From an uncultured Heliomicrobium sp. (lineage in GTDB: Bacteria > Acidobacteriota > Blastocatellia > RBC074): a DNA stretch of 64,000 nucleotides. Of the stretch, positions 1,192 through 17,944 are shown piece after piece. Numbering within the stretch: position 1 is the first letter of the stretch; each line of letters begins with the position of its first letter. The translations under genes were made by a program, and so were the position numbers. Below the pieces are notes generated by a model. It searched no databases and was not told where the DNA came from. It saw only the letters and a program-made list of their open reading frames with translations. Location of the stretch: positions 1,151 through 65,150 of the forward strand of contig CAYRQB010000001.1 in the NCBI GenBank assembly GCA_964426025.1, written 5' to 3'.

Positions 1192-1770
1192 TTATTGTTT
1201 GTCCAATTCGCGCTTGACGGTGGCGGTCAATTCGGCGGCGACCGATTCATCGTGCCCCATGAAATGAGCTACCAGCCTGCCATCGCGCGCGTAAACCAAA
1301 GTTTGCGGCACGGACAAATCCTTCGAATCAACGTATTTTTTGAAAACATCGTCGGTGACCATTCCGACCGGATAAGCGATTTTCATCTGCTGAATGAATT
1401 CGTTGACGCGTTGCGGAGTGGTTTCCGCGTCGTCAACCGCCAGCCCGACTATCTGCAAACCTCGGCTGCTTTCTTCTTCGTCGAATTTGGTCAGCGTGGG
1501 AATGTGCAGCCGCGAATGGCCGCACCAGACAGCGAAGAAATTGACAACGGCGACTTTGCCGCGCAAATCCATCAGGCTGATCTGCTGGCCGTTGAGCAAT
1601 GACAGTTGGCGACGCGCCAGCGAATCTTTAGGCAATTCGCCGATTTTTACTTTCGCTTCGCCGACACCTGAAAGCGTCAACAGAATGGCGACGCCCAATC
1701 CGGCAAAAACTGACAACAGCATCACTCGCCATTGGCGGCGAGTGGAAAAACGGGTAATGATTTTTGACAT
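1192..1770 (-). CDS. TlpA/ResA-like thioredoxin-fold protein, monothiol variant (WCGHS)
   Basis: Track ORF 1192..1776. The N-terminal hydrophobic anchor is LLSVFAGLGVAILL. The active-site region is FFAVWCGHSRLHIP, with CxxS in place of CxxC. The internal ATG at 1770 follows a GAGGTG RBS-like sequence. Confidence 0.75.
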   Translation of the reverse strand: MSKIITRFSTRRQWRVMLLSVFAGLGVAILLTLSGVGEAKVKIGELPKDSLARRQLSLLNGQQISLMDLRGKVAVVNFFAVWCGHSRLHIPTLTKFDEEESSRGLQIVGLAVDDAETTPQRVNEFIQQMKIAYPVGMVTDDVFKKYVDSKDLSVPQTLVYARDGRLVAHFMGHDESVAAELTATVKRELDKQ

Positions 1771-1843
1771 TAGCACCTCGCTAAACGGATGGTGGGGCCT
1801 TAGCTGTGAGACGCTCAGCCCGATTGTTGGCAGCAGGGGTGAT

Positions 1844-2497
1844 TCATTGTTTCTTTGATTTTCCGACTACGGATTTGTTTTGACCGCTTTTGGCGCCAGG
1901 CGCTTTGCCGAGTTGGGCTTCGATGGCCTTTTTCAACCTTTCAAAGTTCGCGGCGTTCCAGCCTACTTCGCGCAATAACATTTTGCCGTCAGCGCCGAAC
2001 AAGATCATTTGCGGCACACCGGCATCTTTCGGGTCGGCGTAATAAGCGCGAACCTCTGTGGTCAGAAAGCCGACTGTGTAATTGATTTTGGCTTTCTGTA
2101 TAAATTGCTTGAGGCTTGCCACGTCGTCCCTGTCTTCTTTTCTGTCTGTCGCCAGCCCCAGGACGGTGAAACCGCGCTGACGATATTTGTTATAAAGCTC
2201 GACAATGTGCGGAGCGTGTTCTTCGCAATGCGGGCATTTCGACCAGAAAATGTCCATCAACACGACGCGTCCGCGCAGGCTGGAAAGCTTCAGATAATCC
2301 TGCTTTTTGGCGACAGCTCCCAGATTCATCGGAACCAGATCAACCAGCATGTCAGGAACGTCGCCCATTCCGTTGCCTTTTGGCAGTTCGGGGACATCCG
2401 ACGATCCGGTGTTTGGCGCGGCGGCAATCACTGCCAGAACACAGACAAGACTCAGCAATCCGGCATTGATAAAAGTTCTGATTCGTTTTCGTAACAT
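1844..2497 (-). CDS. TlpA-like thiol:disulfide oxidoreductase (CPHC active site)
   Basis: Track ORF 1844..2515, whose first codon is TTG. The ATG at 2497 is preceded by GGTG. It has a signal/TM segment [15 protein letters not shown] and the motif [15 protein letters not shown]. It is a paralog of the next gene. Confidence 0.8.
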
Positions 2498-2543
2498 TTC
2501 TAGCACCTGAAACAATTGACGCGGCTAAACCACACAACAGCGT

Positions 2544-3194
2544 TTAACCTTGCCTGGATTTGTTTTGCGCGGGTTTAGCGCTGGCTTTGCTGCCCGGTTT
2601 GACGGTTGGCATCTTGGCAAGCTGGGCTTCGATGGCCTCTTTCAGCTTCTTGCTGATGTTATCGTTCCAGCCGATTTCACGAAAAGCCATTTTGCCGTCA
2701 GGGCCAAACAAAACTATTTGCGGGACTCCGTGATTTCTGCTGTCGGCGTAATAGGCGACAATTTCAGTTGTCATGTAACCGACCGGATAATTGATTTTGG
2801 CTTTGGCCATAAAGCCTTTGACCCTGCCGTCAGATTGTTTGTCGTCTTTGGGATCAGTTGCCAGACCGAGAACTGTAAAACCTTTCGCTCGATATTGGTT
2901 GTAAATCTCGACGATGTGAGGCGCGTGCTCTTCGCAGTGCGAGCATTGCGACCAGAACATATCTATCATCGCCACTTTCCCGCGCAGGCTGGACAGTTTC
3001 AGCTTTTCCTGTTTTGCGCCAGTGGTCGAGACAAGATCAACCATCATTTCCGGCGTATCGCCCGAACCGTCAGCCATAGGCAATTCCGGCACATCCATTG
3101 TTCCGAGCCGCGGCGCTCCGGCAATAACCATAATGGCAAACACAAAGCTCAAGAGCGCGGCATGAAAAACCGCTTTCAACCAATTTTTTGACAT
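2544..3194 (-). CDS. TlpA-like thiol:disulfide oxidoreductase (CSHC active site)
   Basis: Track ORF 2544..3257. The internal ATG at 3194 has an AGGAG about 10 nt upstream. It has the TM segment [14 protein letters not shown] and the motif [15 protein letters not shown]. Confidence 0.8.
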
Positions 3195-3322
3195 TTCTGT
3201 TACTCCTAAGGGAATTTGGGAGCGCGAGCATCCTTGCTCGCACGGTGTCGCGGGCATCTTGCCCGAATCAGATAACCTATTTCGTTCGCAGAACGCGCAC
3301 GAATTGGTAGCTTGCCCGAAGA

Positions 3323-3949
3323 TCAGCGCGCGGCGTTCAATTGTTCAACGACGACTTTTTCCAGGTATTGCATTCTGCCCGGTTGTTCGCCGATCAGATG
3401 TTCGACCACTCGGCCATCGCGCGAAATCACGAAAAGCTGCGGAATCGGCGGAGCGCCTGTTTCGTCTTCAGTGCCTTTCAGAAAGGCCGACGCAATCCAG
3501 GTGTTGTCGTAACCGATCTGGTAATTGACTCCGAACTTTTTGATGAACTCTTCTACTTTATCCTGATCGGATTTCGGATCGGCGGTCAGGCCAACCAATG
3601 CCAGTCCGCGATCCTTGTATTTTTCATTCAACTTGACCAGTTCGGGCATTTGTTTGACGCAAGGGCCGCAGAAAGTCGCCCAGAAATCAACCAGCAGAAC
3701 CTTGCCGCGGTATTCATCCAGTTTGAAGGCGCTGCCGTCCAGTTTGGAGATTGGCACGTCCAAAACATTTTTGATCGCTTCTTCGTTTGCTCGCGGATTT
3801 CTGGCTGCGCTGGCGGTCATCGGAGCCTCAGCGGCGGAAAGCGGTCGCGGCGCAGCGGCTTCATTGCAGCCAAGCGAGAATATCGCTGCGGCAAAGATGG
3901 CGAACGCCAACAAGACCGAAGCAGTGGAGCCAAACTTATTGTCTTTCAT
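3323..3949 (-). CDS. Thioredoxin-fold lipoprotein (CGPC active site), TlpA/ResA family
   Basis: Track ORF 3323..3976, which starts at a TTG. The ATG at 3949 gives [28 protein letters not shown], a lipobox-type signal peptide. The canonical WATFCGPC motif is present. Confidence 0.8.
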
Positions 3950-4133
3950 CGGAAATGCTTTCAATATCGAAATCAATGGTCAATCCGTCGGGTGATTCCG
4001 TCAGCGGGACGAAGTATTCTTCAGAGGCCCAGCGGCCAAGATCAATCGTCTGGCAGCGTTCGGAACAAAACGGCTTCCACGGATTGTCTTCCCAACTTGT
4101 TTCTTTTCGGCAGAGCGGACATCGCCGCGTCAT
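3936..4133 (-). CDS. yacG: YacG-like zinc-ribbon protein (DNA gyrase inhibitor family)
   Basis: Internal Met of track ORF 3936..4292. The product [44 protein letters not shown] matches the YacG pattern CPxC...PFCSxRCQxIDLGxWAxEE..IP. Confidence 0.8.
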
Positions 4134-7338: not shown

Positions 7339-7393
7339 ACGGAACAGACGGAAATAACGGAATGGACGGAAATTCCCCTTCCGTTTGTTCCGT
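7339..7393. promoter_or_regulatory. Array of six hexamers on a strict 9-bp period: ACGGAA four times, then TTCCGT twice
   Basis: ACGGAA occurs at 7339, 7348, 7357 and 7366. TTCCGT occurs at 7379 and 7388. The array lies about 80-130 nt upstream of the 7473 start. Confidence 0.5.
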
Positions 7394-7472
7394 CATTTTC
7401 CAGCTTTTCATTGCAGGCTTATTCGATGGCCTGAGCAGTTACCCTTTATCAACGAAACAAAGCGAGGGACTC

Positions 7473-10400
7473 ATGTATTCCAACCGGCTGAATCTCAAAC
7501 ATCGGCGAATCATCGCGCTTTCAGTTTTTCTGATTTCACTCTCCTTTCTTTTCTGGTTGGGCAAGAGCGAGGCCAGCCGTACGGCGAATACGGCGGCAGT
7601 TCGCCTTGCGCCCGTGAAGTTGAATCTTCAGTTCGGTGGTAAATGGGAAAAGCGTCTGGCTTTGCAGCGCGGAGAAACTTTCGAGCTTTCGGTCGGATTG
7701 CCATCGCCGTCGTCGTTGCCGCATCACGGGCGCATTGGCGTTCGCTGGGTGCTGGAGAAAGCCGAAGCAGGCGAAGCGTTGCCGATTGTCGCCGGGCGCA
7801 AAACAGATGCTTTCGGCATTTACACAGCGCCGACCACCGATTGGCGCAAAGTCCTGCATGCGCTCGACAGCGATGTTTATCTGGTTTATCGCGCTCCGGT
7901 CGCCGGGCAATATCGTTTGGAAATCGCGCCAATCACCGATGAAGCAAACATCTTCTCCAATCCTGAAAGCATTCGTTGGCGCGAAGACGGCGTCGCGCCG
8001 CAAGCTGTGAATTTCCCCGATAAAACTCCCTGGCCGAACGGCAAAACCGTTCCGCTGAACGTAACGATCAATCCGCTTGATCTGAATGATTCAGCGAAAG
8101 TCGGAAGCTTTGTTGAATCCGAGCCGAACGACACGCCCGAACAGGCACAGGAAGTCACGCTTCCCGAAGGCCCGGATGACAGTAAAGCCATTCAAGCCAT
8201 TCGCATCAACGGCGGAGCCGACGACATCGAATACTTCGACAATGGCAAAGTCGGCAAATCCGGCGACGATTGGTTTCGGCTGAATTTCAACGGCAAAGAA
8301 CCGCGATTGCTGACGGCGAATCTGGCGATTCCCGACCACACGCTGGCGGCGCAGTTGCGGTTTTACGCACTTGATGAAAGCGGCGCGCTCGGCGAATACA
8401 CCGAAGGCCGCAACGAAAACGAACGAACTCACCAGCAAAACGAACAACACAGAGCTTCGATAGTTCGGTTGCTGAAACCGGGCAAAACTTATTTGCTTCG
8501 CGCCGAAGCCAACGCGCCGGGTTATGAATTGGAGCTTCGCGTGTTGAAACCTGCGCCGTATGACGATCCGCGAATGGCTGTGCGACAGGCGGTGTACGAC
8601 CACCTTGGCCAAGTGGATTCGTGGCTGACCAATCGTCCGCGCGGAGCTTCGGTCGAACGACGCATTCGCGACACGGGCAATTTGATGGGCACGCATTGCA
8701 TGAGCTGTCACACGCAATCCGGCGTTTGGGGGACAGCCGGGCCTATGGAAAACGGCTACACGTTGGAAAACAAGCAAAACTTCCGGCGGTTGGTCAACGT
8801 GATGTATGAATCGCTGCGCCCGACCAATTACCTGAAAGACGCGGCGAACAACACCAGCCTGGCTCCGCTGGATGTGGGTGACGGCCCGGCAGGAACGCGC
8901 GTTGCAGGTCACAATGTTTGCACCGCCGAACGTGTCATTCCCGCGCGCAAGCTGCATTCGATGCAGGCGATTCGCGCCGCCAATCACACCATTCAAACCG
9001 CAGACCCCAGCGGCATCAATGCCGCCGGACCCGGATCGAACGTCGGCCAATCCATCGTGTACAACTACGCTGGAGAGATTTTGCGCACGGCTTGGGATCG
9101 CACCAACCATCCGCGTTATCTGGCTGCGCTGGAAGAAAAAGCCGACCGTATGCTCGGCGTTTTGCCGCGTTACAGCGACGACCTGTCGAATCGCATAGAG
9201 TTTTTCAAACGCTACTTCCCGCAGGATTACGTCGCGCAAAACCAGAAAGCGCGGACGATTTATCCCACGCTTCCGCCCGACCCGAAACCGCAACCGACTC
9301 CGACGCCATCAAATGACGGCAAACCGGTTGAACCTCCTCCCGCGATCTTTCCTGAATACAAACTGAAATCAGCCGACGCCGCCGCAAAGCTGTTGGAGCG
9401 CATCGCTGAAACGATCAAAAAAGACGAAGCGCGTTTGCGCGCGATTCAAAATGCAGACGGTTCGTGGGGATTCGATCCGGGCAAGCCCGACGGTGATAAA
9501 TGGAAAACCAACGGCGAATACGATCCGGCTCCGACGGCGTTGGCCTTGAGCGCATTTCACGCGCTGGGCTTCACGGACAAAGACCCGGCGGTTGCTCGCG
9601 GCGTCAAGGCTTTGTTGCGGATGCAAGACCCGTATGGCCGCTGGAACAAAAACGCCCTGACCGGTTTTGTGACGACCAGCTACGTGCTGCACGCGCTCGC
9701 GCGACTTTATCCTGAACAGCCTGTCAAACCGACTCGCGCCGAATTCACGCCTCGCGCTGGCGAATCTTTGCCAGCAACCATCGCGCGCGTTCGAGCGTTG
9801 TCGCACACAGATGATCCCGCGCTGGTGGATTTGATGATTCAGGCTTCGTTGCATCCGAGCGCGCAAGTTCGCGTCTGGTCGGCGATGGCGCTCGGCGGAG
9901 TTCATGACGAACGCGGCGTGCCGACTTTGATTAAACTGATGGGCGATCAGGTCAAGATGGTTCGTGACGCTGCGGCTTGGGCGATGGAACAAACTCTGCT
10001 CGATGACAAAGGTTTCGGCACGGTGTTCGTCGCTTACGAGACGGGCGGCGATCTGACACGCGAAAGCATTGCCAAAGCATTGGGCATCCGCGCCGATGCG
10101 GTGATGACCAAACCGACGTTCAGCAAAACGCGACTGACGGCTTTGCTCGATCGCGCGATCAACGACGACCGCCATCCGGCGGTTCGCGCGTGGGCTGCGC
10201 GTGCGGCGTGGCAATGGTGGATTTGGAATCCGCCTGTGCGTGAGGCGATAAATCAAAGTTGGACGCGGAAGTTGCTCGCCGCCGAATCGAACGCGCTGGT
10301 TGAAAACACGTTCCGTTACCAAAGCCACGCGCTGTTTGTCGTCAATGGCCACAAAGCCAACGGCAGCGAAGAGCATCAATACAAAGAACTGTCCGGGCTG

Positions 10401-11939
10401 TTCAAAACACTTGAGCAGAAATTGGAAGATGCTGCGTTGACTGACGCGGTGAAAAATCGTCTGGCCAGAAGATTAGTGGCGATTGCCGCTACGTTTTACG
10501 CTTCGGCGGGCGGCGACGGCGGCCCCGGTCAGATGGGTTACATCACCGCGGGCAGCACTGAGATGATGGGCAAAGCCGTCTTGCGTTTGTGGGGCAAAAC
10601 CGATGCGGCGAACATTCCGGAACTGCGACTGGTGATGGAAGGCGCGGCCAACGTCGCTTACGAACCTTTGCAGGACAAGATCATTGATTATTCGACGCAC
10701 GGCCCCGAAGAGCTTCGCACGCTGGCCGCCGCCGCAGTCAGTGATCCCAGCGCCGTGACCTTGCCCGCAGTTCAGGAGAAAGTCGAACCGCTGGTTGAAC
10801 AGATTCATCGCGCTGCGCCGGATTACGACCGCCGCCAATCGCTGGCTCAACCAGTCTTGCGATTGTTCAGCCGCGCCAAATGGGCTGTGCCGAAAACCAC
10901 CGAACAGCGCGATCTGCTTTACCGTTTGCTGATTCCCAAACACACAGCCGAACCGGGCACGGCGGAATTGAAGAAGATCATTGACGCCGCCGAAGCCGCC
11001 GTTCGTCCAATGGGTTTGCCGGATGCCGATTGGTACATCGCCGACCGAATGGGCGCGATGCTGGCGACGAACACTGATTTGCACACCGACGAATTGCTGC
11101 GCTTCATTCCCGGCGCGTCGAAAAATCCGCTGACTTCGCACTTCTGGCTGCCTTCGGTCGCCTGGGTCGCTTCGTATGGCGACGAGATTCCGGAAATTGA
11201 TTCCGCCAACAATCAACCGTCCTCGCCGCAGATTGCCGCCGCTCGCGCCCGCGCCATCGAACTGTTCGTGCAGATGTTGCAACCTTCGACTCCGGTCATG
11301 AGCCGCAACATCGCATTGCGATTGGCGAATACGACCGCTCTGCGGCAAGACCCGACTGTGCAGGCCGCGCTGCGGAAACTGGTCGAGACCGAAAAGAACA
11401 ACGTCGCGCGCAATGCTTTGAAATACTCCGATCCGCAAATCTGGATGGCCGAATTGCAGGAAGCGGTGAAGAAAGAACCGCTGGCCGCCAATTTGCTGGC
11501 TGGAAGCCTGAAAGATCAAACTCTTTCGCCGCAATTCATCGCCAGCTTTCGGTACTTCAGCGATTACGTGGCGCCGGAACTCAATCGCAATCAGCGAATG
11601 GATGAAATGTCCTGCATGAAATGCCACGCCGTCGAAGGCCGCGTGCCTTCGATGTATCTGGCCGGGCCGGACGGCAACGGATTCTGGACTGTGCCGAATA
11701 TGCTGAAGAATTATTTGACGCTGCAACAACGCGTCAATCCTGCGGACATCGAAACCAGCAAGCTGTTGCGCAAACCGCTCAACGTCCAAACCGGCAAGGA
11801 AGACGGTCACCAAGGCGGACGCCGTTACACGCCATCCGAACGCGGTTATCAGATCATTCGTCGCTGGGCGCTGGATCAACCGCGCGTGATGCAAAGTCAG
11901 GGAGCGCCGGCCACCGCTCAACCCGGAAAAAACAGATGA
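7473..11939 (+). CDS. Giant secreted/anchored multidomain protein with two CxxCH heme-c motifs, squalene-cyclase-like repeats and HEAT repeats
   Basis: The ATG at 7473 follows GAGGGA, and the track ORF starts upstream at 7362. It has an N-terminal TM/signal IIALSVFLISLSFLFWL. A PPC-like segment (SEPNDTPEQA...GDDWFRL) precedes the first heme motif HCMSCHTQSG. QxxDGSW-type repeats (NADGSWGF, QDPYGRWN) and HEAT-like repeats (VRVWSAMALGG, VRDAAAWAM, HPAVRAWAARAAW) follow. A second CMKCHAVEG motif sits near the C-terminus. Confidence 0.8.
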   Translation: MYSNRLNLKHRRIIALSVFLISLSFLFWLGKSEASRTANTAAVRLAPVKLNLQFGGKWEKRLALQRGETFELSVGLPSPSSLPHHGRIGVRWVLEKAEAGEALPIVAGRKTDAFGIYTAPTTDWRKVLHALDSDVYLVYRAPVAGQYRLEIAPITDEANIFSNPESIRWREDGVAPQAVNFPDKTPWPNGKTVPLNVTINPLDLNDSAKVGSFVESEPNDTPEQAQEVTLPEGPDDSKAIQAIRINGGADDIEYFDNGKVGKSGDDWFRLNFNGKEPRLLTANLAIPDHTLAAQLRFYALDESGALGEYTEGRNENERTHQQNEQHRASIVRLLKPGKTYLLRAEANAPGYELELRVLKPAPYDDPRMAVRQAVYDHLGQVDSWLTNRPRGASVERRIRDTGNLMGTHCMSCHTQSGVWGTAGPMENGYTLENKQNFRRLVNVMYESLRPTNYLKDAANNTSLAPLDVGDGPAGTRVAGHNVCTAERVIPARKLHSMQAIRAANHTIQTADPSGINAAGPGSNVGQSIVYNYAGEILRTAWDRTNHPRYLAALEEKADRMLGVLPRYSDDLSNRIEFFKRYFPQDYVAQNQKARTIYPTLPPDPKPQPTPTPSNDGKPVEPPPAIFPEYKLKSADAAAKLLERIAETIKKDEARLRAIQNADGSWGFDPGKPDGDKWKTNGEYDPAPTALALSAFHALGFTDKDPAVARGVKALLRMQDPYGRWNKNALTGFVTTSYVLHALARLYPEQPVKPTRAEFTPRAGESLPATIARVRALSHTDDPALVDLMIQASLHPSAQVRVWSAMALGGVHDERGVPTLIKLMGDQVKMVRDAAAWAMEQTLLDDKGFGTVFVAYETGGDLTRESIAKALGIRADAVMTKPTFSKTRLTALLDRAINDDRHPAVRAWAARAAWQWWIWNPPVREAINQSWTRKLLAAESNALVENTFRYQSHALFVVNGHKANGSEEHQYKELSGLFKTLEQKLEDAALTDAVKNRLARRLVAIAATFYASAGGDGGPGQMGYITAGSTEMMGKAVLRLWGKTDAANIPELRLVMEGAANVAYEPLQDKIIDYSTHGPEELRTLAAAAVSDPSAVTLPAVQEKVEPLVEQIHRAAPDYDRRQSLAQPVLRLFSRAKWAVPKTTEQRDLLYRLLIPKHTAEPGTAELKKIIDAAEAAVRPMGLPDADWYIADRMGAMLATNTDLHTDELLRFIPGASKNPLTSHFWLPSVAWVASYGDEIPEIDSANNQPSSPQIAAARARAIELFVQMLQPSTPVMSRNIALRLANTTALRQDPTVQAALRKLVETEKNNVARNALKYSDPQIWMAELQEAVKKEPLAANLLAGSLKDQTLSPQFIASFRYFSDYVAPELNRNQRMDEMSCMKCHAVEGRVPSMYLAGPDGNGFWTVPNMLKNYLTLQQRVNPADIETSKLLRKPLNVQTGKEDGHQGGRRYTPSERGYQIIRRWALDQPRVMQSQGAPATAQPGKNR

Positions 11940-11974
11940 CAGTTGAAATGCGACGATGAAGAGGAATTCAGTCG

Positions 11975-13504
11975 TTAAGGCTGTTTGTCTTCTTTGCGGA
12001 TGGGATTGCCTTCCCATTTCCAAACGCCGTCTTCATTCACCAGCGATCGCGCTCCGTTCGGAGCGGTCGGTTTGGCGTTCGTCTTAGGCAGCCATTTGCG
12101 ATGTTCGGCGATGATCCTGGCGAAGCGCGGATTGCCTGCCAGATTGTTCCATTCGTTCGGATCGCGTCGCATATCGTAAAGCTCTTCTGAACCATCGGCG
12201 TAACGAATGTATCGCCAGCGCTCGCTTCGCACAGTGTGATTGTCCGGATTGTGGGTAGTAATGGCAGGCCATGGACGCGAAGCTTTTGCGTTTTTCAGGA
12301 GCGGTTTCAGGCTGTGACCTTCCAGTTCTTTACTGACTGGCAGACCGCTCAAATCGGCCAGCGTCGGATAAAGATCGAGCAATTCCACCGGGCGATTGCT
12401 GCGAGCGCCAACGGAAATTCCAGGCCCTGCGAAAACCAATGGCACTCGCGTTGAACGTTCCCACAAAGAGTTTTTCCCGCTGATTGCTTTTTCTCCCAGA
12501 TGCCATCCGTGATCCGACCACAAGACGACGACCGTGTTTTCGGCCAATCCGTTTTTTTCCAGAGCTTCCAGAACGCGGCCAACCTGATTGTCCACGAAAC
12601 TGACGCTGGCCAGATAAGCCCGAACCATTGGCCGCCATTGATTGGCGGATTGCAACCAGGACAAACGTGGCTCAGGCAATTTCCAGTGCAGATACCAGGA
12701 AAATTCCGGCGTGTCGTTGCGGTCATCGGCTTTGACCGCAGGCATGATCAGTTTGTCGTCCGGGTACAGATCGAACCATCGCTCGGGCGTGTAAAGCGGT
12801 ACGTGCGGCAATCGAAAACCCACGGCCAGAAAGAAAGGTTGCGACGGAGCCGAACGCAATTTTTCAATTGCCCAATCGGCCAGCTTCCAATCGTCGTGGT
12901 CTGAATCCGTTTCGGGGAACATCCCCCAATCCACCAGCCTGTGATTTTCCGGCGTGGTGACGAATTTCTGCGCGGGCAGGTTTTTGTAATTGTCCACCTG
13001 ATCCCAGACGTTGAATTCGTTTTTGCGCTCGGCGACTGGCGGCGATCCGTCGTGAAAGATTTTGCCCGCAGTGATCGTCCGATAACCATGCTGGGCCAGG
13101 TATTGCGGAAGCGTGACCAGATTCTTCAGGCTTTCGACGCGGCGAAACCACGGCTGCAAGGCGTAAACGCCGGTCGTTGTGGGACGCAATCCGGTCAACA
13201 GACTTGTGCGAGAAGGATTGCACAGCGGAGCCTGACAATGCGCGTTGGTGAATAGCGTGCCTCTGCCAGCCAGCCCGTCAATGGCAGGAGTTTGAACCTG
13301 TTGATGGCCGTTCATGCATCCGACCCAGTCGTTCAAATCGTCAATGGCTATGAACAGGTAATTGGGTTTGGTTGGTTGAGCTTGTTTCGTTTTCGATTGT
13401 CTGTCGCTGACAGCCTCTGCGATTTGCAGTGGCTGGATCAACAACGAAGCGAGACAAAGAGCGATGAAAAATTGTTTTGAGAATTTGACGGGGCTTTTGT
13501 TCAT
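11975..13504 (-). CDS. Sulfatase of the formylglycine type
   Basis: It has a signal peptide. The sulfatase signature CNPSRTSLLTGLRP contains the C-x-P-x-R target motif. Further motifs are IAIDDLNDW near the N-terminus and WSDHGWHLGE. Confidence 0.9.
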   Translation of the reverse strand: MNKSPVKFSKQFFIALCLASLLIQPLQIAEAVSDRQSKTKQAQPTKPNYLFIAIDDLNDWVGCMNGHQQVQTPAIDGLAGRGTLFTNAHCQAPLCNPSRTSLLTGLRPTTTGVYALQPWFRRVESLKNLVTLPQYLAQHGYRTITAGKIFHDGSPPVAERKNEFNVWDQVDNYKNLPAQKFVTTPENHRLVDWGMFPETDSDHDDWKLADWAIEKLRSAPSQPFFLAVGFRLPHVPLYTPERWFDLYPDDKLIMPAVKADDRNDTPEFSWYLHWKLPEPRLSWLQSANQWRPMVRAYLASVSFVDNQVGRVLEALEKNGLAENTVVVLWSDHGWHLGEKAISGKNSLWERSTRVPLVFAGPGISVGARSNRPVELLDLYPTLADLSGLPVSKELEGHSLKPLLKNAKASRPWPAITTHNPDNHTVRSERWRYIRYADGSEELYDMRRDPNEWNNLAGNPRFARIIAEHRKWLPKTNAKPTAPNGARSLVNEDGVWKWEGNPIRKEDKQP

Positions 13505-13566
13505 AGCTCTATCCAGTTTTCACGGTTTGGAAGCGCTACCGCAATTTCCATTGGTAAGGAGAGGGA

Positions 13567-13661
13567 TTAGCCATTAACCATCAGCCATTAACCATTAACA
13601 GACAGGGGGCGGTTTTCTTACCCTGACTAATAATGGTTAGTGGCTGATGGTTAATGGCTAA
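13567..13661. repeat. Large hairpin formed by 32-nt inverted arms
   Basis: The arms TTAGCCATTAACCATCAGCCATTAACCATTAA and TTAATGGTTAGTGGCTGATGGTTAATGGCTAA differ at one position. Each arm is built from CCATTAACCAT units. A roughly 30-nt loop separates them, and a T-rich run on the + strand follows. Confidence 0.6.
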
Positions 13662-13727
13662 TTTCGATTTTTAGCTTTTGTTTCATCAGACGTTTACGCA
13701 TTGAATTACTGGTAGCGGAGGTTTGGA

Positions 13728-14690
13728 TTATTTCGCGCGATGGTAATCAATGACGCTTTTCAGGATTTCGTCCAGGCCGAAAGTCGGTTGATAACCGATC
13801 AGATCGCGAATTTTTGAAATGTCCGGGACGCGCCGCATCATGTCTTCAAAACCTTCTTCGTAGGCTTTTTCGTATGGCAGGAAGCTGATGCGCGAATTCG
13901 ATCCTGACAGAGCTTTGATTCGTTCGGCCAGTTGCAGGATGGTCACTTCGTAATCTCCGCCGATGTTGTAAACCTCGCCGACGGCATCGGGGTGTTCGAT
14001 CAATTTCATTAGCGCGCCGACCACGTCGTTGACGTGAGTGAAGCAGCGGCTTTGCGAACCGTCGCCGTAAACGGTGATGTCTTCGTTGCCAATCGCCTGT
14101 TTGACGAAGTTGGGAATGACCATCCCGTAACGTCCTGTTTGGCGCGGGCCGACTGTGTTGAACAAACGGGCAATGACGGTCGGGACTTTCTTTTCTTTCC
14201 AGTAGGCGATGGCCAGAAATTCGTCTATCGCCTTCGAGCAGGCGTAACTCCAACGGCCTTTGTTGGTCGCGCCCATGACCAGATCGTCGTCTTCGCGGAA
14301 AGGAATGGTTTCGCGTTTGCCGTAAACTTCCGATGTCGAAGTGATCAGCACGCGTTTGCGCTTCTTGGCGGCCTGAGCCAGAACGACTTCGGTTCCACGA
14401 ATGTTTGTTTCAATGGTTCTGACGGGACTTTCAACGATCAATCGAACTCCGACCGCCGCCGCCAGGTGATAAGTCGCATCGCACAAATCCACCAGTTCGG
14501 CCATCAATTGATGATTCGTCACCGTGTCGAGCGCGTAATGAAAGCCGGGGTTTTTCTTGATGTGTTCGATGTTTTCCATCGAACCGGTCGAAAGATCGTC
14601 AATGATGTAAACCTCGTCACCGCGTTCGAGATGCTTTTCAGCCAAATGCGAGCCAATGAAACCGGCTCCTCCTGTAATCAAAACTTTCAT
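13728..14690 (-). CDS. NAD-dependent epimerase/dehydratase, UDP-glucuronate decarboxylase or NDP-sugar 4,6-dehydratase-like SDR
   Basis: It carries the Rossmann motif MKVLITGGAGFIGSHL and the SDR catalytic motif YACSK. Overall similarity is to the UXS/RmlB family. Confidence 0.85.
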   Translation of the reverse strand: MKVLITGGAGFIGSHLAEKHLERGDEVYIIDDLSTGSMENIEHIKKNPGFHYALDTVTNHQLMAELVDLCDATYHLAAAVGVRLIVESPVRTIETNIRGTEVVLAQAAKKRKRVLITSTSEVYGKRETIPFREDDDLVMGATNKGRWSYACSKAIDEFLAIAYWKEKKVPTVIARLFNTVGPRQTGRYGMVIPNFVKQAIGNEDITVYGDGSQSRCFTHVNDVVGALMKLIEHPDAVGEVYNIGGDYEVTILQLAERIKALSGSNSRISFLPYEKAYEEGFEDMMRRVPDISKIRDLIGYQPTFGLDEILKSVIDYHRAK

Positions 14691-14710
14691 TCTGTTTTTT
14701 TCCTCAATAT

Positions 14711-14869
14711 GACTTACGCAGGAAAGACAATTTCAACGCAAGGTCGCAAAGCTTCGAAGACGCAAAGATGGTTTTTGGCGAGGAAACGATTCAAGTTGCC
14801 ACAACCAAGATTGCTTTGCGCTTTTGCCGCCAGGCGTCTTTGCGTTAAGGCAGTGACTCTGCGTAAGTC
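14711..14869. repeat. Imperfect palindrome of about 160 bp closed by perfect 11-bp inverted termini (GACTTACGCAG / CTGCGTAAGTC)
   Basis: The terminal inverted repeats are at 14711..14721 and 14859..14869. The inner arms carry repeated CGCAAAG and CTTTGCG motifs that pair imperfectly. Confidence 0.5.
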
Positions 14870-16087
14870 CTGACCGTAACAAATTGCCTGGTCTTGAATA
14901 GCCTGATGTTTCGGGGCTGCGAACAGTCTTTGGATATACTTGATTATGCGAGCTTGGACTGCCCCGACAGTGAACAAGGGATGCGCGAGATTGTCAACGG
15001 AATCTTTTGTGTAAAGTTGGCATTGTAAGGCCATCAGAATATGGACTCATTTTTTGAAATCAGGGCAATCTGGAGCAAAATCATTTTTCTGCTTAACCGG
15101 TAGCAAATAGGAGGTAGCTCCGGTGCAATCCCATATCCCAAGTCAGGTTTTAATTAGTGGAGCGACCAGAACTGGTCAATATGGCGAAAAATCTATTCAA
15201 TGTTGGCCATCGGACAAATCATCCTACGTACAGCATATGGGAGGACCCTCCTATAAAAATTATCGCTCCCGCCTATAAAAAATAGTCCGTGTCACCGATG
15301 CGCAGCGCTTTCCAAAAAGTTATCTTACACTTGTCCCATTCATTACTGCAGAAGTGTGGAGCTACATTTGGTGATTGAATTAACCAATTTAGCGGCAGTA
15401 AGCGGGGCAGTCTCAATAAGTGCATAACTTCAAAACCGGATTCAGTTGGCAATTGATTAAGCGACAAACGAGCGGAAGTTTTTCTCACATCGCATAGTCA
15501 ATCGAATAGCTGCCAAACTGGTTCAGTTCAGCGAAAATACGCGCCCGATTCTGTGACAATCCAGGCATGAACCGCTAACAGTTGTTGTGGGGGCGTTGGT
15601 TTTACAGGCTTCCGAACTGTGCCGGTAGCGGTTTGGTTTTGGGTAAAGGGAATTCACAAATTTTTTGGGCCGAGTTATTGACTGGAAACTCCGGATGGCG
15701 ATCCGGCGATATTCAGTCGCAAAGAGCACAGATCAAATCCAGGATTTAAGCTACGGCGGATGGTTGGTGACGGCTTGGATAAGTAGCTTGCTTTTTAAAG
15801 CAGATGGATTGTTGACAGCAACAAATATCAGGTTCATTTGCCATGAGCCAATTCTCTCTCGGCTAATTATCCCTATAAACATTACGTCGCCAAAGATTCT
15901 CCATCATTTCCAACAGGCCTAACTGGTTTTTCAGTTCAGGCGGAATGATTGGAAAGTCAATATATCGTTTTGAACAACCAGGATGCTGCCTCGGCATGAG
16001 GTTTCCTTCAAGGTTTCAAGTTTGGGCAAGGTGTGTCTTGACGGAAAACAACAAGCCGAACAAGGCATCCGAAGAGAAATAAAACGT

Positions 16088-17944
16088 ATGGGATCAAATG
16101 CATTAGTTATTGGAGCAGGACCTGCCGGTTTAACCGCCGCCTATGAATTGTCGAAACTCGGTATGGGGTCAACCATCATCGAGGCAGACGCACAGGTCGG
16201 CGGTATTTCGCGAACGGTCAATTACAAAGGCTACAGATTTGATATTGGCGGACACCGCTTTTTCTCGAAGGTTCCGGTCATCAACGAACTGTGGCAGGAA
16301 ATTCTGAGCGAAGATTTTCTGCTGCGGCCTCGGATGTCCAGGATTTATTATCGTGGGCACTATTTCGATTATCCGCTGAAAGCTGCCAACGCTCTGGCCG
16401 GATTGGGGCCGGTGGAAGCTCTGTTGGTGATGATGAGCTACAGCAAGGCCAAGATGATGCCGCACGGAGACGAGAGCAATTTCGAGCAGTGGGTTTCCAA
16501 CCGCTTCGGCCAACGGCTGTACGAAATCTTTTTCAAAACCTACACCGAGAAAGTTTGGGGAATCCCCTGCAGCGAAATTTCGGCGGATTGGGCGGCTCAG
16601 CGCATCAAAAACCTTTCGCTCAAAGAAGCCATTCGCAACGCGCTGTTCAGCGCCGCCAAAACCACCGACGGTGAAGTCATCACGACCCTGATTGATCAAT
16701 TCCATTATCCGCGTCTGGGGCCGGGAATGATGTGGGAATGCTGCGAAGAGATTCTGGCTTCGCAGGGAAATGAAACCGTTCACGGCATCAAGGTTGAAAA
16801 GGTTCGCCACCGAAAGGGAAGAGTCGAGACAGTGGTCGGTCGCAACAAAGACGGCGAGATGGTTGAATTCGACGCCGATCATTTCATCTCTTCTATGCCC
16901 TTGCGAAGTTTGATTCGCAGCCTCGATCCGTTACCGCCGGACGAAGTTCTGCAGGCGGCAAACACTTTGCGGTACCGCGATTACCTGACGGTGGTCTTGA
17001 TCGCCAAACGCGATAACGTTTTCCCGGACAACTGGATTTACATTCATTCTCCCGAAGTGAAGATGGGGCGGATTCAGAATTACAAAAACTGGAGTCCGGA
17101 AATGGTTCCCGACTCTTCGCGCAGTTCGCTGGGGCTGGAATATTTCCTCTGGCAGAAAGACGAAGAATGGGATTGGCCGGACGAACAGTTGATTGATCTG
17201 GGCATCAAGGAAGTGACCAAGATCGGGGTAATCGAACCGAGCGAAATAGAGGACGGAACGGTCGTCAGAATGAAAAAGGCGTATCCGGTTTACGATCAGG
17301 GATACAAAGAGAATCTGGAATTGATCAAAAACTATCTGGCGACGATCACCAACCTGCAAACCGTCGGCAGAAACGGATTGCATCGTTATAACAACCAGGA
17401 TCATTCGATGTTGACTGCGGTTTACGCCGCGCGCAACATCGTCGGCGAACAGAACGATGTCTGGTCGGTGAACACCGAAATGGAGTACCACGAAGAAGTG
17501 AAATCGCCGGGACCGGAACGTTCCAGTACAATCGCAAACACAATGGGCGACAGGGCAGTACCGATGCCGTTGAGAGAATCAGCCGGAACTGATTTCTCCA
17601 CCGACGAGATTATTCAGAAAGCCTTTGCCAAACTCGATCCAATTGCGCTTGGCATATCGCTTGGCGCGGTCGTTGGAACGATAATCTTTCTGGCGACGGC
17701 GGCGCTGATTTTGAAAGGCGGACCGGTAATCGGACCGACTCTTGGTTTGCTGCGTAATTACCTGTTCGGTTACGAAGTGAACTGGCAGGGGGCATTTGTC
17801 GGTTTGGCAGAAGGTGGAATCGGCGGTTTCCTGCTCGGATACGTTGTGGCCAATCTAAGAAACTGGGGAATGAGGGCATATGCCCATTTGATACGGCGAC
17901 GCGCCGAATCAAAGGCCCAGCAACATTTACTGGATGAAGTATGA
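16088..17944 (+). CDS. NAD(P)/FAD-dependent oxidoreductase with a C-terminal membrane domain
   Basis: ATG at 16088; the track ORF starts at 15983. The start gives [21 protein letters not shown], a Rossmann dinucleotide-binding motif. The body resembles the amine-oxidase/UDP-galactopyranose-mutase-like superfamily. The last ~110 aa form a hydrophobic two-helix module ([22 protein letters not shown]...[15 protein letters not shown]). Confidence 0.8.

Follow-up and report, generated by a model that had tools for sequence, protein, structure and literature searches.

Among the large heme-motif proteins described so far, those with the domains PSCyt1, PSCyt2 or PSCyt3 together with PSD1 to PSD5 (DUF1549/DUF1553) are often encoded near sulfatases, and are sometimes fused to carbohydrate-binding modules (CBMs) or to F5/8 type C domains (PMC5615132). 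For a PVC-type heme-binding protein, Lac161_ORF7, which combines TIGR02604, HEAT_2 and TIGR02603, hydrolysis of lactose, that is, beta-galactosidase activity, has been reported (PMC5342196). In this work we analyzed the gene at positions 7473..11939 (+ strand) of a stretch of 64,000 nucleotides, here called the window, to which all positions refer; the window belongs to contig CAYRQB010000001.1, deposited as an uncultured Heliomicrobium sp. and placed by GTDB in the class Blastocatellia of the Acidobacteriota. The gene encodes an exported, multidomain protein of 1488 aa with two predicted sites for c-type heme, and it represents an undescribed, widespread family whose distinctive trait is a putative c-type heme site built into an alpha/alpha toroid like that of squalene-hopene cyclase (SHC). 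That this is a single gene, that the product is exported, that it carries two CxxCH sites, that its domains stand in the order given below and that the family is uncharacterised are claims that we hold with high confidence.

The longest ORF of the + strand in the window extends over 7362..11939, and the ATG at 7473 has a Shine-Dalgarno-like GAGGGA just 5' of it. Translation from 7473 gives 1488 codons plus the stop codon and a product with the N-terminus MYSNRLNLKHRRIIALSVFLISLSFLFWLG; this start is the likely one because the lengths of the homologues, 1460-1540 aa, fit it. An identical protein is found in NCBI (P0001), and 728 homologues were recovered. A preliminary description, made from the window's letters and translations, had already read the region as one very large ORF and had named a frameshift joining several genes as one way in which it could be mistaken; the same full-length single ORF, of similar length, is present in more than 80 genomes of several phyla, and 7473-11939 is one intact, genuine gene. 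All the sequence elements quoted in that description were found in the order stated there, and its remark that no single family explains the whole protein holds.

Five cysteines are present in the 1488 residues; four of them are within the two CxxCH motifs and the fifth, C483, is variable. Motif 1, CMSCH (aa 409-413, 8697..8711), is placed at the N-terminus of a toroid helix, and motif 2, CMKCH (aa 1381-1385, 11613..11627), near the C-terminus. Given the composition of the protein, 3.4e-4 such motifs are expected, the probability of at least two is ~6e-8, and merely 55 of 200,000 shuffled sequences contained at least one. Among 120 close homologues (64-100% identity to the target), 117 retain both motifs, and thus the two c-type heme motifs that the preliminary description had pointed out are genuine and not chance occurrences. 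C409, C412 and H413 are invariant in the 120 close homologues and in a superfamily alignment of 29 sequences; C1381, C1384 and H1385 are kept in 117-118 of the 120 and are invariant in the superfamily alignment. The segment around motif 1, GTHCMSCHTQSG, is nearly invariant, with G406 and residues 409-417 unchanged throughout and T407 and H408 present in 118/120. At the level of the whole superfamily, 177 full-length relatives were compared, down to those that are ~20-30% identical, and 175 of them have at least two CxxCH motifs; in the distant full-length proteins one motif lies at aa ~320-580 and another ~100 residues before the C-terminus of the core, and a few distant members have a third one. 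The family has, in consequence, two evolutionarily fixed CxxCH sites, which are predicted to bind c-type heme covalently.

The architecture around these sites was examined in two overlapping AlphaFold2 (AF2) models built from an alignment of 57 sequences with 26-90% identity: model A covers aa 359-1488 (predicted local distance difference test score, pLDDT, 83; predicted template modelling score, pTM, 0.72) and model B aa 36-760 (pLDDT 81, pTM 0.83). Heme site 1 falls in an all-alpha domain, aa ~359-748 (8547..9716), in which AF2 places ~12 helices that form an alpha/alpha toroid. In Foldseek comparisons this domain matched the class II terpene cyclases, i.e. drimenyl-diphosphate synthase (7xqz, 3e-5), SHC (8pak, 3sqc) and oxidosqualene cyclase (OSC; 1w6j), and about equally well the toroid-bearing alpha2-macroglobulin, CD109, C4 and C5 proteins and the GH105 alpha/alpha barrels, with values ranging from 3e-5 to 1e-3, those of 7xqz, 8pak and 3sqc being around 1e-4. 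The sequence itself carries two SHC-type QW repeat units at aa ~640-745 (9390..9707; Q659..W665 and Q718..W724), and the segments NADGSWGFDPG (aa 660-670) and QDPYGRWNKN (aa 718-727) had been recognized in the preliminary description as repeats of this type. They are real repeats: Pfam SQHop_cyclase_C matches aa 645-735 above its gathering cut-off (2.3e-8), the family profile matches SHC at 1.9e-36 when made from the whole-protein alignment and at 7.3e-28 when made from the toroid region, and Q659, G663, Q718, G722 and W724 are invariant or almost so. The profile match to SHC is limited to one QW unit (aa ~640-745), which aligns to each QW repeat of SHC in turn, and for the heme 1 region (aa 359-600) profile searches against the PDB gave no relative except through the QW unit. 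Within the toroid, a Pro-rich variable linker at aa ~600-633 (9270..9371) is a hot-spot of insertions and deletions, with reduced conservation, many insertions and, for the most part, no secondary structure in the AF2 models. Identity with a terpene cyclase was considered and ruled out: a D.DD sequence, the acid motif DxDD of these enzymes, occurs nowhere in the protein, and the score with TIGR01507 is 36.7 bits, its cut-off being 431.

Along the protein, conservation is highest around heme 1, at aa 360-560, where column identity reaches 0.96-0.99 over aa 381-420 and 441-480. The residues D382, W384, P389, R390, R397, C409, C412, H413, G428 and P450, all in this vicinity, are invariant in the superfamily. 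The loops at aa 389-408 and 449-470 have a pLDDT below 50 in both models though they are almost invariant; we read this as loops that would fold around a cofactor that AF2 does not model. In superfamily alignments at 20-30% identity H413 was the sole His or Met of the toroid found to be invariant, therefore heme 1 may be five-coordinate, or its ligands may vary between subfamilies.

Heme site 2 belongs to a small cytochrome c-like domain, aa ~1355-1470 (11535..11882); the C-terminal ~120 residues make up a small domain of helices that surrounds CMKCH. The family matches are weak here: Pfam Cytochrom_C covers aa 1378-1439 below its cut-off (E 0.076), Cytochrome_CBB3 appears weakly in 4 of 22 diverse C-terminal domains (best E 0.11), and PF13442 is precomputed for a subgroup of 1600 aa. 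A profile made from the 22 domains matches the di-heme cytochrome FoxE (5mab) with an E value of 4e-4. His1446 (11808..11810), in an H-x-G-G loop, is invariant in the alignments A1 and A4 and is a candidate for the sixth (distal) ligand; its loop is conserved yet has a pLDDT below 50 (residues 1076-1090 of model A). Heme 2 is probably a low-spin heme with two His ligands, H1385 and H1446.

Between the toroid and this domain extends a HEAT/ARM alpha-solenoid of ~580 residues, aa ~765-1345 (9765..11507). The preliminary description had listed HEAT repeats, and three lines of evidence agree on them: Pfam HEAT_2/HEAT matches aa 789-840 above the cut-off (8e-9), with repeats starting at ~aa 770; the sequence matches the alphaRep proteins in the PDB (9e-25); and the AF2 model shows paired helices throughout, with Foldseek matches of ~1e-6 to karyopherin-beta2, CAND1 and importins. 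Two patches of the solenoid, AAWQWWxWNPP and DGGPGQ[ML]GY, are unusually conserved.

At the other end, aa 1-35 (7473..7577) read as a Sec-type signal peptide or an uncleaved membrane anchor: the N-terminus, MYSNRLNLKHRRIIALSVFLISLSFLFWLGKSEA, includes the basic n-region KHRR and a hydrophobic core of 18 residues, followed by SEA. A hydrophobic 15-mer is found at the N-terminus of 160 out of 169 full-length relatives, in agreement with the exported protein anticipated in the preliminary description. The protein has a predicted N-terminal export signal or anchor, whether or not it is cleaved.

Two beta-sandwiches precede the toroid. The first, aa ~45-212 (7605..8108), is all-beta in model B with a pLDDT mostly of 76-94. 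It contains the patch K-x-L-H-x-x-D-x-D (KVLHALDSD, aa 126-134, nt ~7848-7874), in which K126, L128 and D132 do not vary, and H129 hardly does, down to ~20% identity; this patch could be a metal or ligand site. The second sandwich, aa ~213-358 (8109..8546), resembles PPC and the collagen-binding domain (CBD) of ColG, and carries the motifs ExEPND, ADD..Y and DDWF, the segment EPNDTPEQA...DDWFRL covering aa 216-269. Among PDB entries, Foldseek matched model B best to the tandem CBD of ColG (5iku, 2.6e-7), and the single ColG CBDs 4hpk, 2o8o and 1nqd give TM-scores, normalized to the target, of 0.53-0.55 (0.55 for 4hpk). The PPC-like beta-sandwich of the preliminary description thus stands as a fold but not as a Pfam family, since PPC (PF04151) was detected in 2 of 16 diverse members with a best E value of 4.6e-4, below the threshold, and left the target itself unmatched. 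The acidic pattern ExEPND / ADD..Y / DDWF is, we assume, similar to the double Ca2+ site of ColG s3b.

The distribution of the family was determined by an exhaustive search with aa 289-1488 as query against 1.84 billion cluster representatives, which gave 1230 clusters with E<=1e-3 and 77 (clusters at 50% identity) with E<=1e-30. Among the relatives there are full-length proteins, 1340-2065 aa long, whose identity is 27-33% in the matched stretches and ~20% in full-length alignment. In addition, one genome per GTDB species was scanned with the alignment A2, which reaches the close subfamily only, and a close relative was found in 464 species-representative genomes; the best 80 of the 464 belong to the Blastocatellia, to other Acidobacteriota (Terriglobia, Ca. 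Versatilivoraceae, Bryobacterales, Solibacter), to the Armatimonadota and to the Chthonomonadales. Source names add the Gemmataceae and the Chloroherpetonaceae, and distant members occur in the Armatimonadota and the Hydrogenedentota. This is, then, a large uncharacterised family, mainly of Acidobacteriota, that is also present in Armatimonadota, Planctomycetota, Hydrogenedentota and Chloroherpetonaceae. No family model covers it, a scan of the target with NCBIfam added nothing specific, and literature searches for its domain combination returned nothing on this protein family. Across the class Blastocatellia the close subfamily is 64-88% identical over ~1480 residues; the family is under strong purifying selection. 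Several metagenome-assembled genomes (MAGs) labelled 'uncultured Heliomicrobium sp.' or 'Heliobacteriaceae' (L006, L008, L009, L010, L023, L035) have genes that share 89-90% identity with the target and with those of Blastocatellia MAGs, and these records probably bear an incorrect taxonomic label.

The preliminary description had considered a role in extracytoplasmic electron transfer or in substrate binding, and either is plausible. Covalent attachment of c-type heme takes place in the periplasm, by the Ccm and Ccs systems. We propose that the protein would be exported unfolded by the Sec pathway and that the periplasmic cytochrome c maturation system would attach both hemes. Heme 1, ligated by His413, would be the working centre, accessible to a substrate or ligand in the cavity of the toroid and wrapped by nearly invariant loops and residues that include R390, R397, D382, T414 and Q415; heme 2, with His1385 and His1446 as its axial ligands, would act as a low-spin relay and exchange electrons with a redox partner outside the protein. 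The role of the PPC-like sandwich, with its Ca-site-like pattern, and of the solenoid would be to hold either a substrate, polymeric or hydrophobic, or a partner protein. Hints of polymer binding come from the ColG-CBD-like domain, from the F5/8 type C domains of distant members and from a locus with GH78, pectate-lyase-like and RhaT genes. The logic would be that of a catalytic domain fused to a cytochrome c relay, as for example in the quinohemoprotein dehydrogenases. A catalytic or ligand-binding heme 1 fed by a C-terminal relay heme is a tentative proposal in which we have rather low confidence, based on conservation and on the predicted fold; the favoured explanation as a whole, in which the firm identity and this mechanism are taken together, lies in our judgement just on the probable side.

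The following points weigh against the proposed mechanism. The two hemes are ~970 residues apart in the sequence. The statement that heme 1 has no conserved distal ligand comes from alignments at 20-30% identity, and there are candidates for subfamily-specific ligands, M444 in the close family and a CH-x-x-H sequence in the distant one. Finally, the genomic context is not conserved, so that no partner or pathway backs a particular substrate. A bolder version of the idea would make the toroid, with its covalently bound and distally open heme, a new class of heme enzyme domain, a 'heme-toroid', that oxidises or cleaves an isoprenoid or a glycan in its ring cavity outside the cytoplasm; the bis-His C-terminal cytochrome would recharge it within one polypeptide, and the HEAT solenoid would clamp both redox domains together. 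This version is speculative and we regard it as doubtful. Among soil bacteria the Acidobacteriota rank with the most abundant, and their redox biology outside the cytoplasm is to a large extent obscure. If heme 1 were catalytic, the family would provide a new scaffold for heme enzymology, as well as a handle on the obscure PSCyt and DUF1501 families, which flank the target in some genomes.

The same parts might instead form a non-catalytic periplasmic scaffold for electron transfer or docking, in which the hemes just pass electrons and the solenoid and the toroid just bind redox partners, respiratory or other. Two c-type hemes on a long HEAT scaffold with no recognisable catalytic motif would suit this role, the best PDB relative of the C-terminal domain is the di-heme cytochrome FoxE, and the close subfamily is conserved in a housekeeping-like manner (64-88% identity across a class). 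However, hemes at opposite ends of 1488 residues would make a poor wire, and conservation peaks precisely in the loops around heme 1, the heme that has no conserved sixth ligand. Moreover, no conserved partner gene adjoins the target, and the distant subfamilies, with their expanded paralogues and carbohydrate-binding domains, look more like a case of substrate diversification. We consider the scaffold explanation rather unlikely, and the preferred one is still that of a working heme 1 served by the relay heme 2.

The genomic context bears on the nature of a possible substrate. ORFs were clustered over 85 loci, and nine single look-ups were made; in this sample there is no universal neighbour, and four long contigs have no neighbours in common with the window. 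The commonest neighbour family is DUF1501, directly 3' of the target in 13 of the 85 loci; in close Blastocatellia relatives (L008, L011, L030) this gene begins 4 nt after the target stop codon. A PSCyt2/PSD1 gene overlaps the start of the target by 9-38 nt in five loci (L011, L040, L065, L073, L081). In a subclade of the Blastocatellia there is, consequently, an apparent operon formed by PSCyt2/PSD1, the target and DUF1501, in which the target is inserted into the classic 'planctomycete' pair of a PSCyt and a DUF1501 gene. In the window, a sulfatase gene (11975-13504, - strand; PF00884, 1.4e-50) converges with the target, with 35 nt between the stop codons; DUF1501 presumably belongs to the same alkaline-phosphatase/sulfatase superfamily. 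Two distant members (P0235, P0248) have a C-terminal F5/8 type C domain. One of the two, from the Hydrogenedentota (L086, 6588-18672), is encoded between a pectate-lyase-like gene and one for an alpha-L-rhamnosidase of family GH78, and RhaT and a gene like those for rhamnose/fucose isomerases are found close by. Another locus (L090) has two convergent paralogues of the distant subfamily, at 8001-12311 (+) and 12330-16304 (-), of 1436 and 1324 aa and 34% identical, both with the two-CxxCH architecture; this pair points to an expansion of paralogues in some lineages.

Cytochrome domains fused to CBMs feed lytic polysaccharide monooxygenases (LPMOs). By analogy, the target could be a redox enzyme, or a helper of one, active on carbohydrates or other polymers, in which the toroid and the PPC/discoidin domains bind a glycan and the hemes oxidise it or supply electrons to partner enzymes. 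The ColG-CBD-like domain, the F5/8 type C domains of P0235 and P0248 and the fit of the toroid to GH105-type alpha/alpha barrels, about as good as that to terpene cyclases, are consistent with such an activity, and so is the context just mentioned: the L086 member beside the rhamnosidase, the pectate-lyase-like gene and RhaT, the convergent sulfatase in the window and the DUF1501 genes directly 3' in 13 loci. PSCyt-type heme proteins are likewise found near sulfatases and CBMs (PMC5615132), and the protein for which beta-galactosidase activity was reported combines HEAT repeats and a cytochrome c domain (PMC5342196). Nevertheless, this context is restricted to a minority of loci, all of close kin, the genes next to the target in the window are, except for the one convergent sulfatase, housekeeping genes with no relation to it, and no CAZy-type catalytic motif or family match was found with Pfam and NCBIfam. 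For these reasons we judge a carbohydrate-active protein unlikely.

Less is left of the possibility that the protein binds or modifies terpenoids, with an isoprenoid such as a hopanoid, a carotenoid or a quinone held by the SHC-like toroid at the outer face of the membrane and heme 1 oxidising or sensing it. SHC, OSC and drimenyl-diphosphate synthase have QW repeats homologous to those of the target, the fold of the toroid as a whole matches that of class II cyclases, and the N-terminal anchor would hold the protein at a membrane; but the sequence similarity is limited to the generic QW unit, the acid motif DxDD is absent, and isoprenoid genes are not among the recurrent neighbours, which makes this explanation improbable. 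The Foldseek matches to human alpha2-macroglobulin, CD109, C4 and C5 (4e-5 to 1e-3), together with a weak profile match to insect TEP1 and E. coli YfhM, could suggest a protease trap or envelope defence protein made of beta-sandwiches and a thioester-type toroid. Such an identity is largely refuted by the absence of the CxEQ thioester motif, the Cys residues of the toroid being those of the heme motif and the variable C483; besides, there are merely two beta-sandwiches, the TM-scores are 0.13-0.3, and the hemes and the HEAT solenoid would be left unexplained, so that we hold this reading to be very improbable. That the CxxCH motifs arose by chance, or that the ORF artefactually fuses at least two genes, has nothing in its support beyond the weak Pfam cytochrome c match of the window protein taken alone, is ruled out by conservation (motifs invariant across the superfamily, P ~6e-8 for at least two, and a full-length ORF that recurs in more than 80 genomes of several phyla), and has a negligible probability.

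On the 5' side of the target and on the same strand there are a dCTP deaminase gene and a YdeI-like gene; further 5', on the minus strand, a CN-hydrolase gene is followed by four TlpA/redoxin genes. These four are tandem paralogues of the thioredoxin fold (TlpA/AhpC-TSA/redoxin type, 1192-3976, - strand) whose products, of 194, 223, 237 and 217 aa, are all extended at the N-terminus, and a fourfold array of this kind is unusual. The suggestion in the preliminary description that these reductases serve the maturation of the target's hemes did not survive: they are on the minus strand and more than 3.4 kb away, with three unrelated genes in between, and no redoxin gene is a recurrent neighbour across the 85 loci. 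A scan for promoters and terminators gave sites no more numerous than in shuffled sequence. At ~15983-58055 (+ strand) the window contains a long same-strand cluster that resembles those for the biosynthesis of an envelope glycan, with genes for a flavin amine-oxidase-like protein, two PMT_2/STT3-like glycosyltransferases, GT87, a CofD-like protein, GT2, a radical SAM/SPASM protein, an asparagine synthase, a B12-binding radical SAM protein and Wzz.

Compared with the described systems, the target comes closest in general plan to two groups of large exported heme proteins of PVC bacteria and Acidobacteria. Those of the first group, the PVC-type heme-binding proteins, occur in Planctomycetota, Verrucomicrobiota and Acidobacteriota with a physiological role that is largely obscure; in them a putatively catalytic N-terminal part is followed by HEAT repeats and, at the C-terminus, by a cytochrome c domain with one heme. 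In contrast, the N-terminal part of the target is formed by two beta-sandwiches and a heme-bearing toroid, the chain has an additional heme site in its interior and a much longer solenoid, and neither TIGR02603 nor TIGR02604 (NCBIfam) matches the target or the C-terminal domains of 22 members. The PSCyt/PSD proteins are likewise big exported proteins with heme motifs in the same phyla; nonetheless, the domain set of the target differs from theirs, and its association with DUF1501 is limited to ~15% of the examined loci. The kinship with PSCyt1, PSCyt2 and PSD1 contemplated in the preliminary description found no backing, given that PF07635, PF07583 and PF07587 had no Pfam match at E<=1 in the target and the 22 diverse C-terminal domains; PSCyt/PSD and TIGR02603-type identities are ruled out by the absence of family matches.

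With ColG CBD and PPC the second beta-sandwich shares the fold and the N-terminal acidic pattern, E-x-E-x-N-D and D-D, whereas in ColG the domain is C-terminal to a peptidase and in the target it is internal and stays under the Pfam PPC threshold. The class II terpene cyclases have in common with the target the alpha/alpha toroid and homologous QW repeats. They differ in that their toroids form a beta-gamma pair, while the target has one, and in that they are monotopic enzymes of the cytoplasmic face, while the target is predicted to be exported, lacks DxDD and has instead a site for covalent c-type heme on a toroid helix; as far as we know and could search, a c-type heme fixed in a toroid of the terpene-cyclase type had not been described before. 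For the arrangement of the two hemes, the closest counterparts are the di-heme cytochrome c peroxidase/MauG enzymes and the quinohemoprotein dehydrogenases. With these enzymes no kinship in sequence or fold was detected except for a stray CCP_MauG match (E 0.027) in one of the 22 members, and the analogy is a functional one only: in them, as would be the case in the target, a low-spin c-type heme housed in a small cytochrome domain acts as the relay for a reactive centre.

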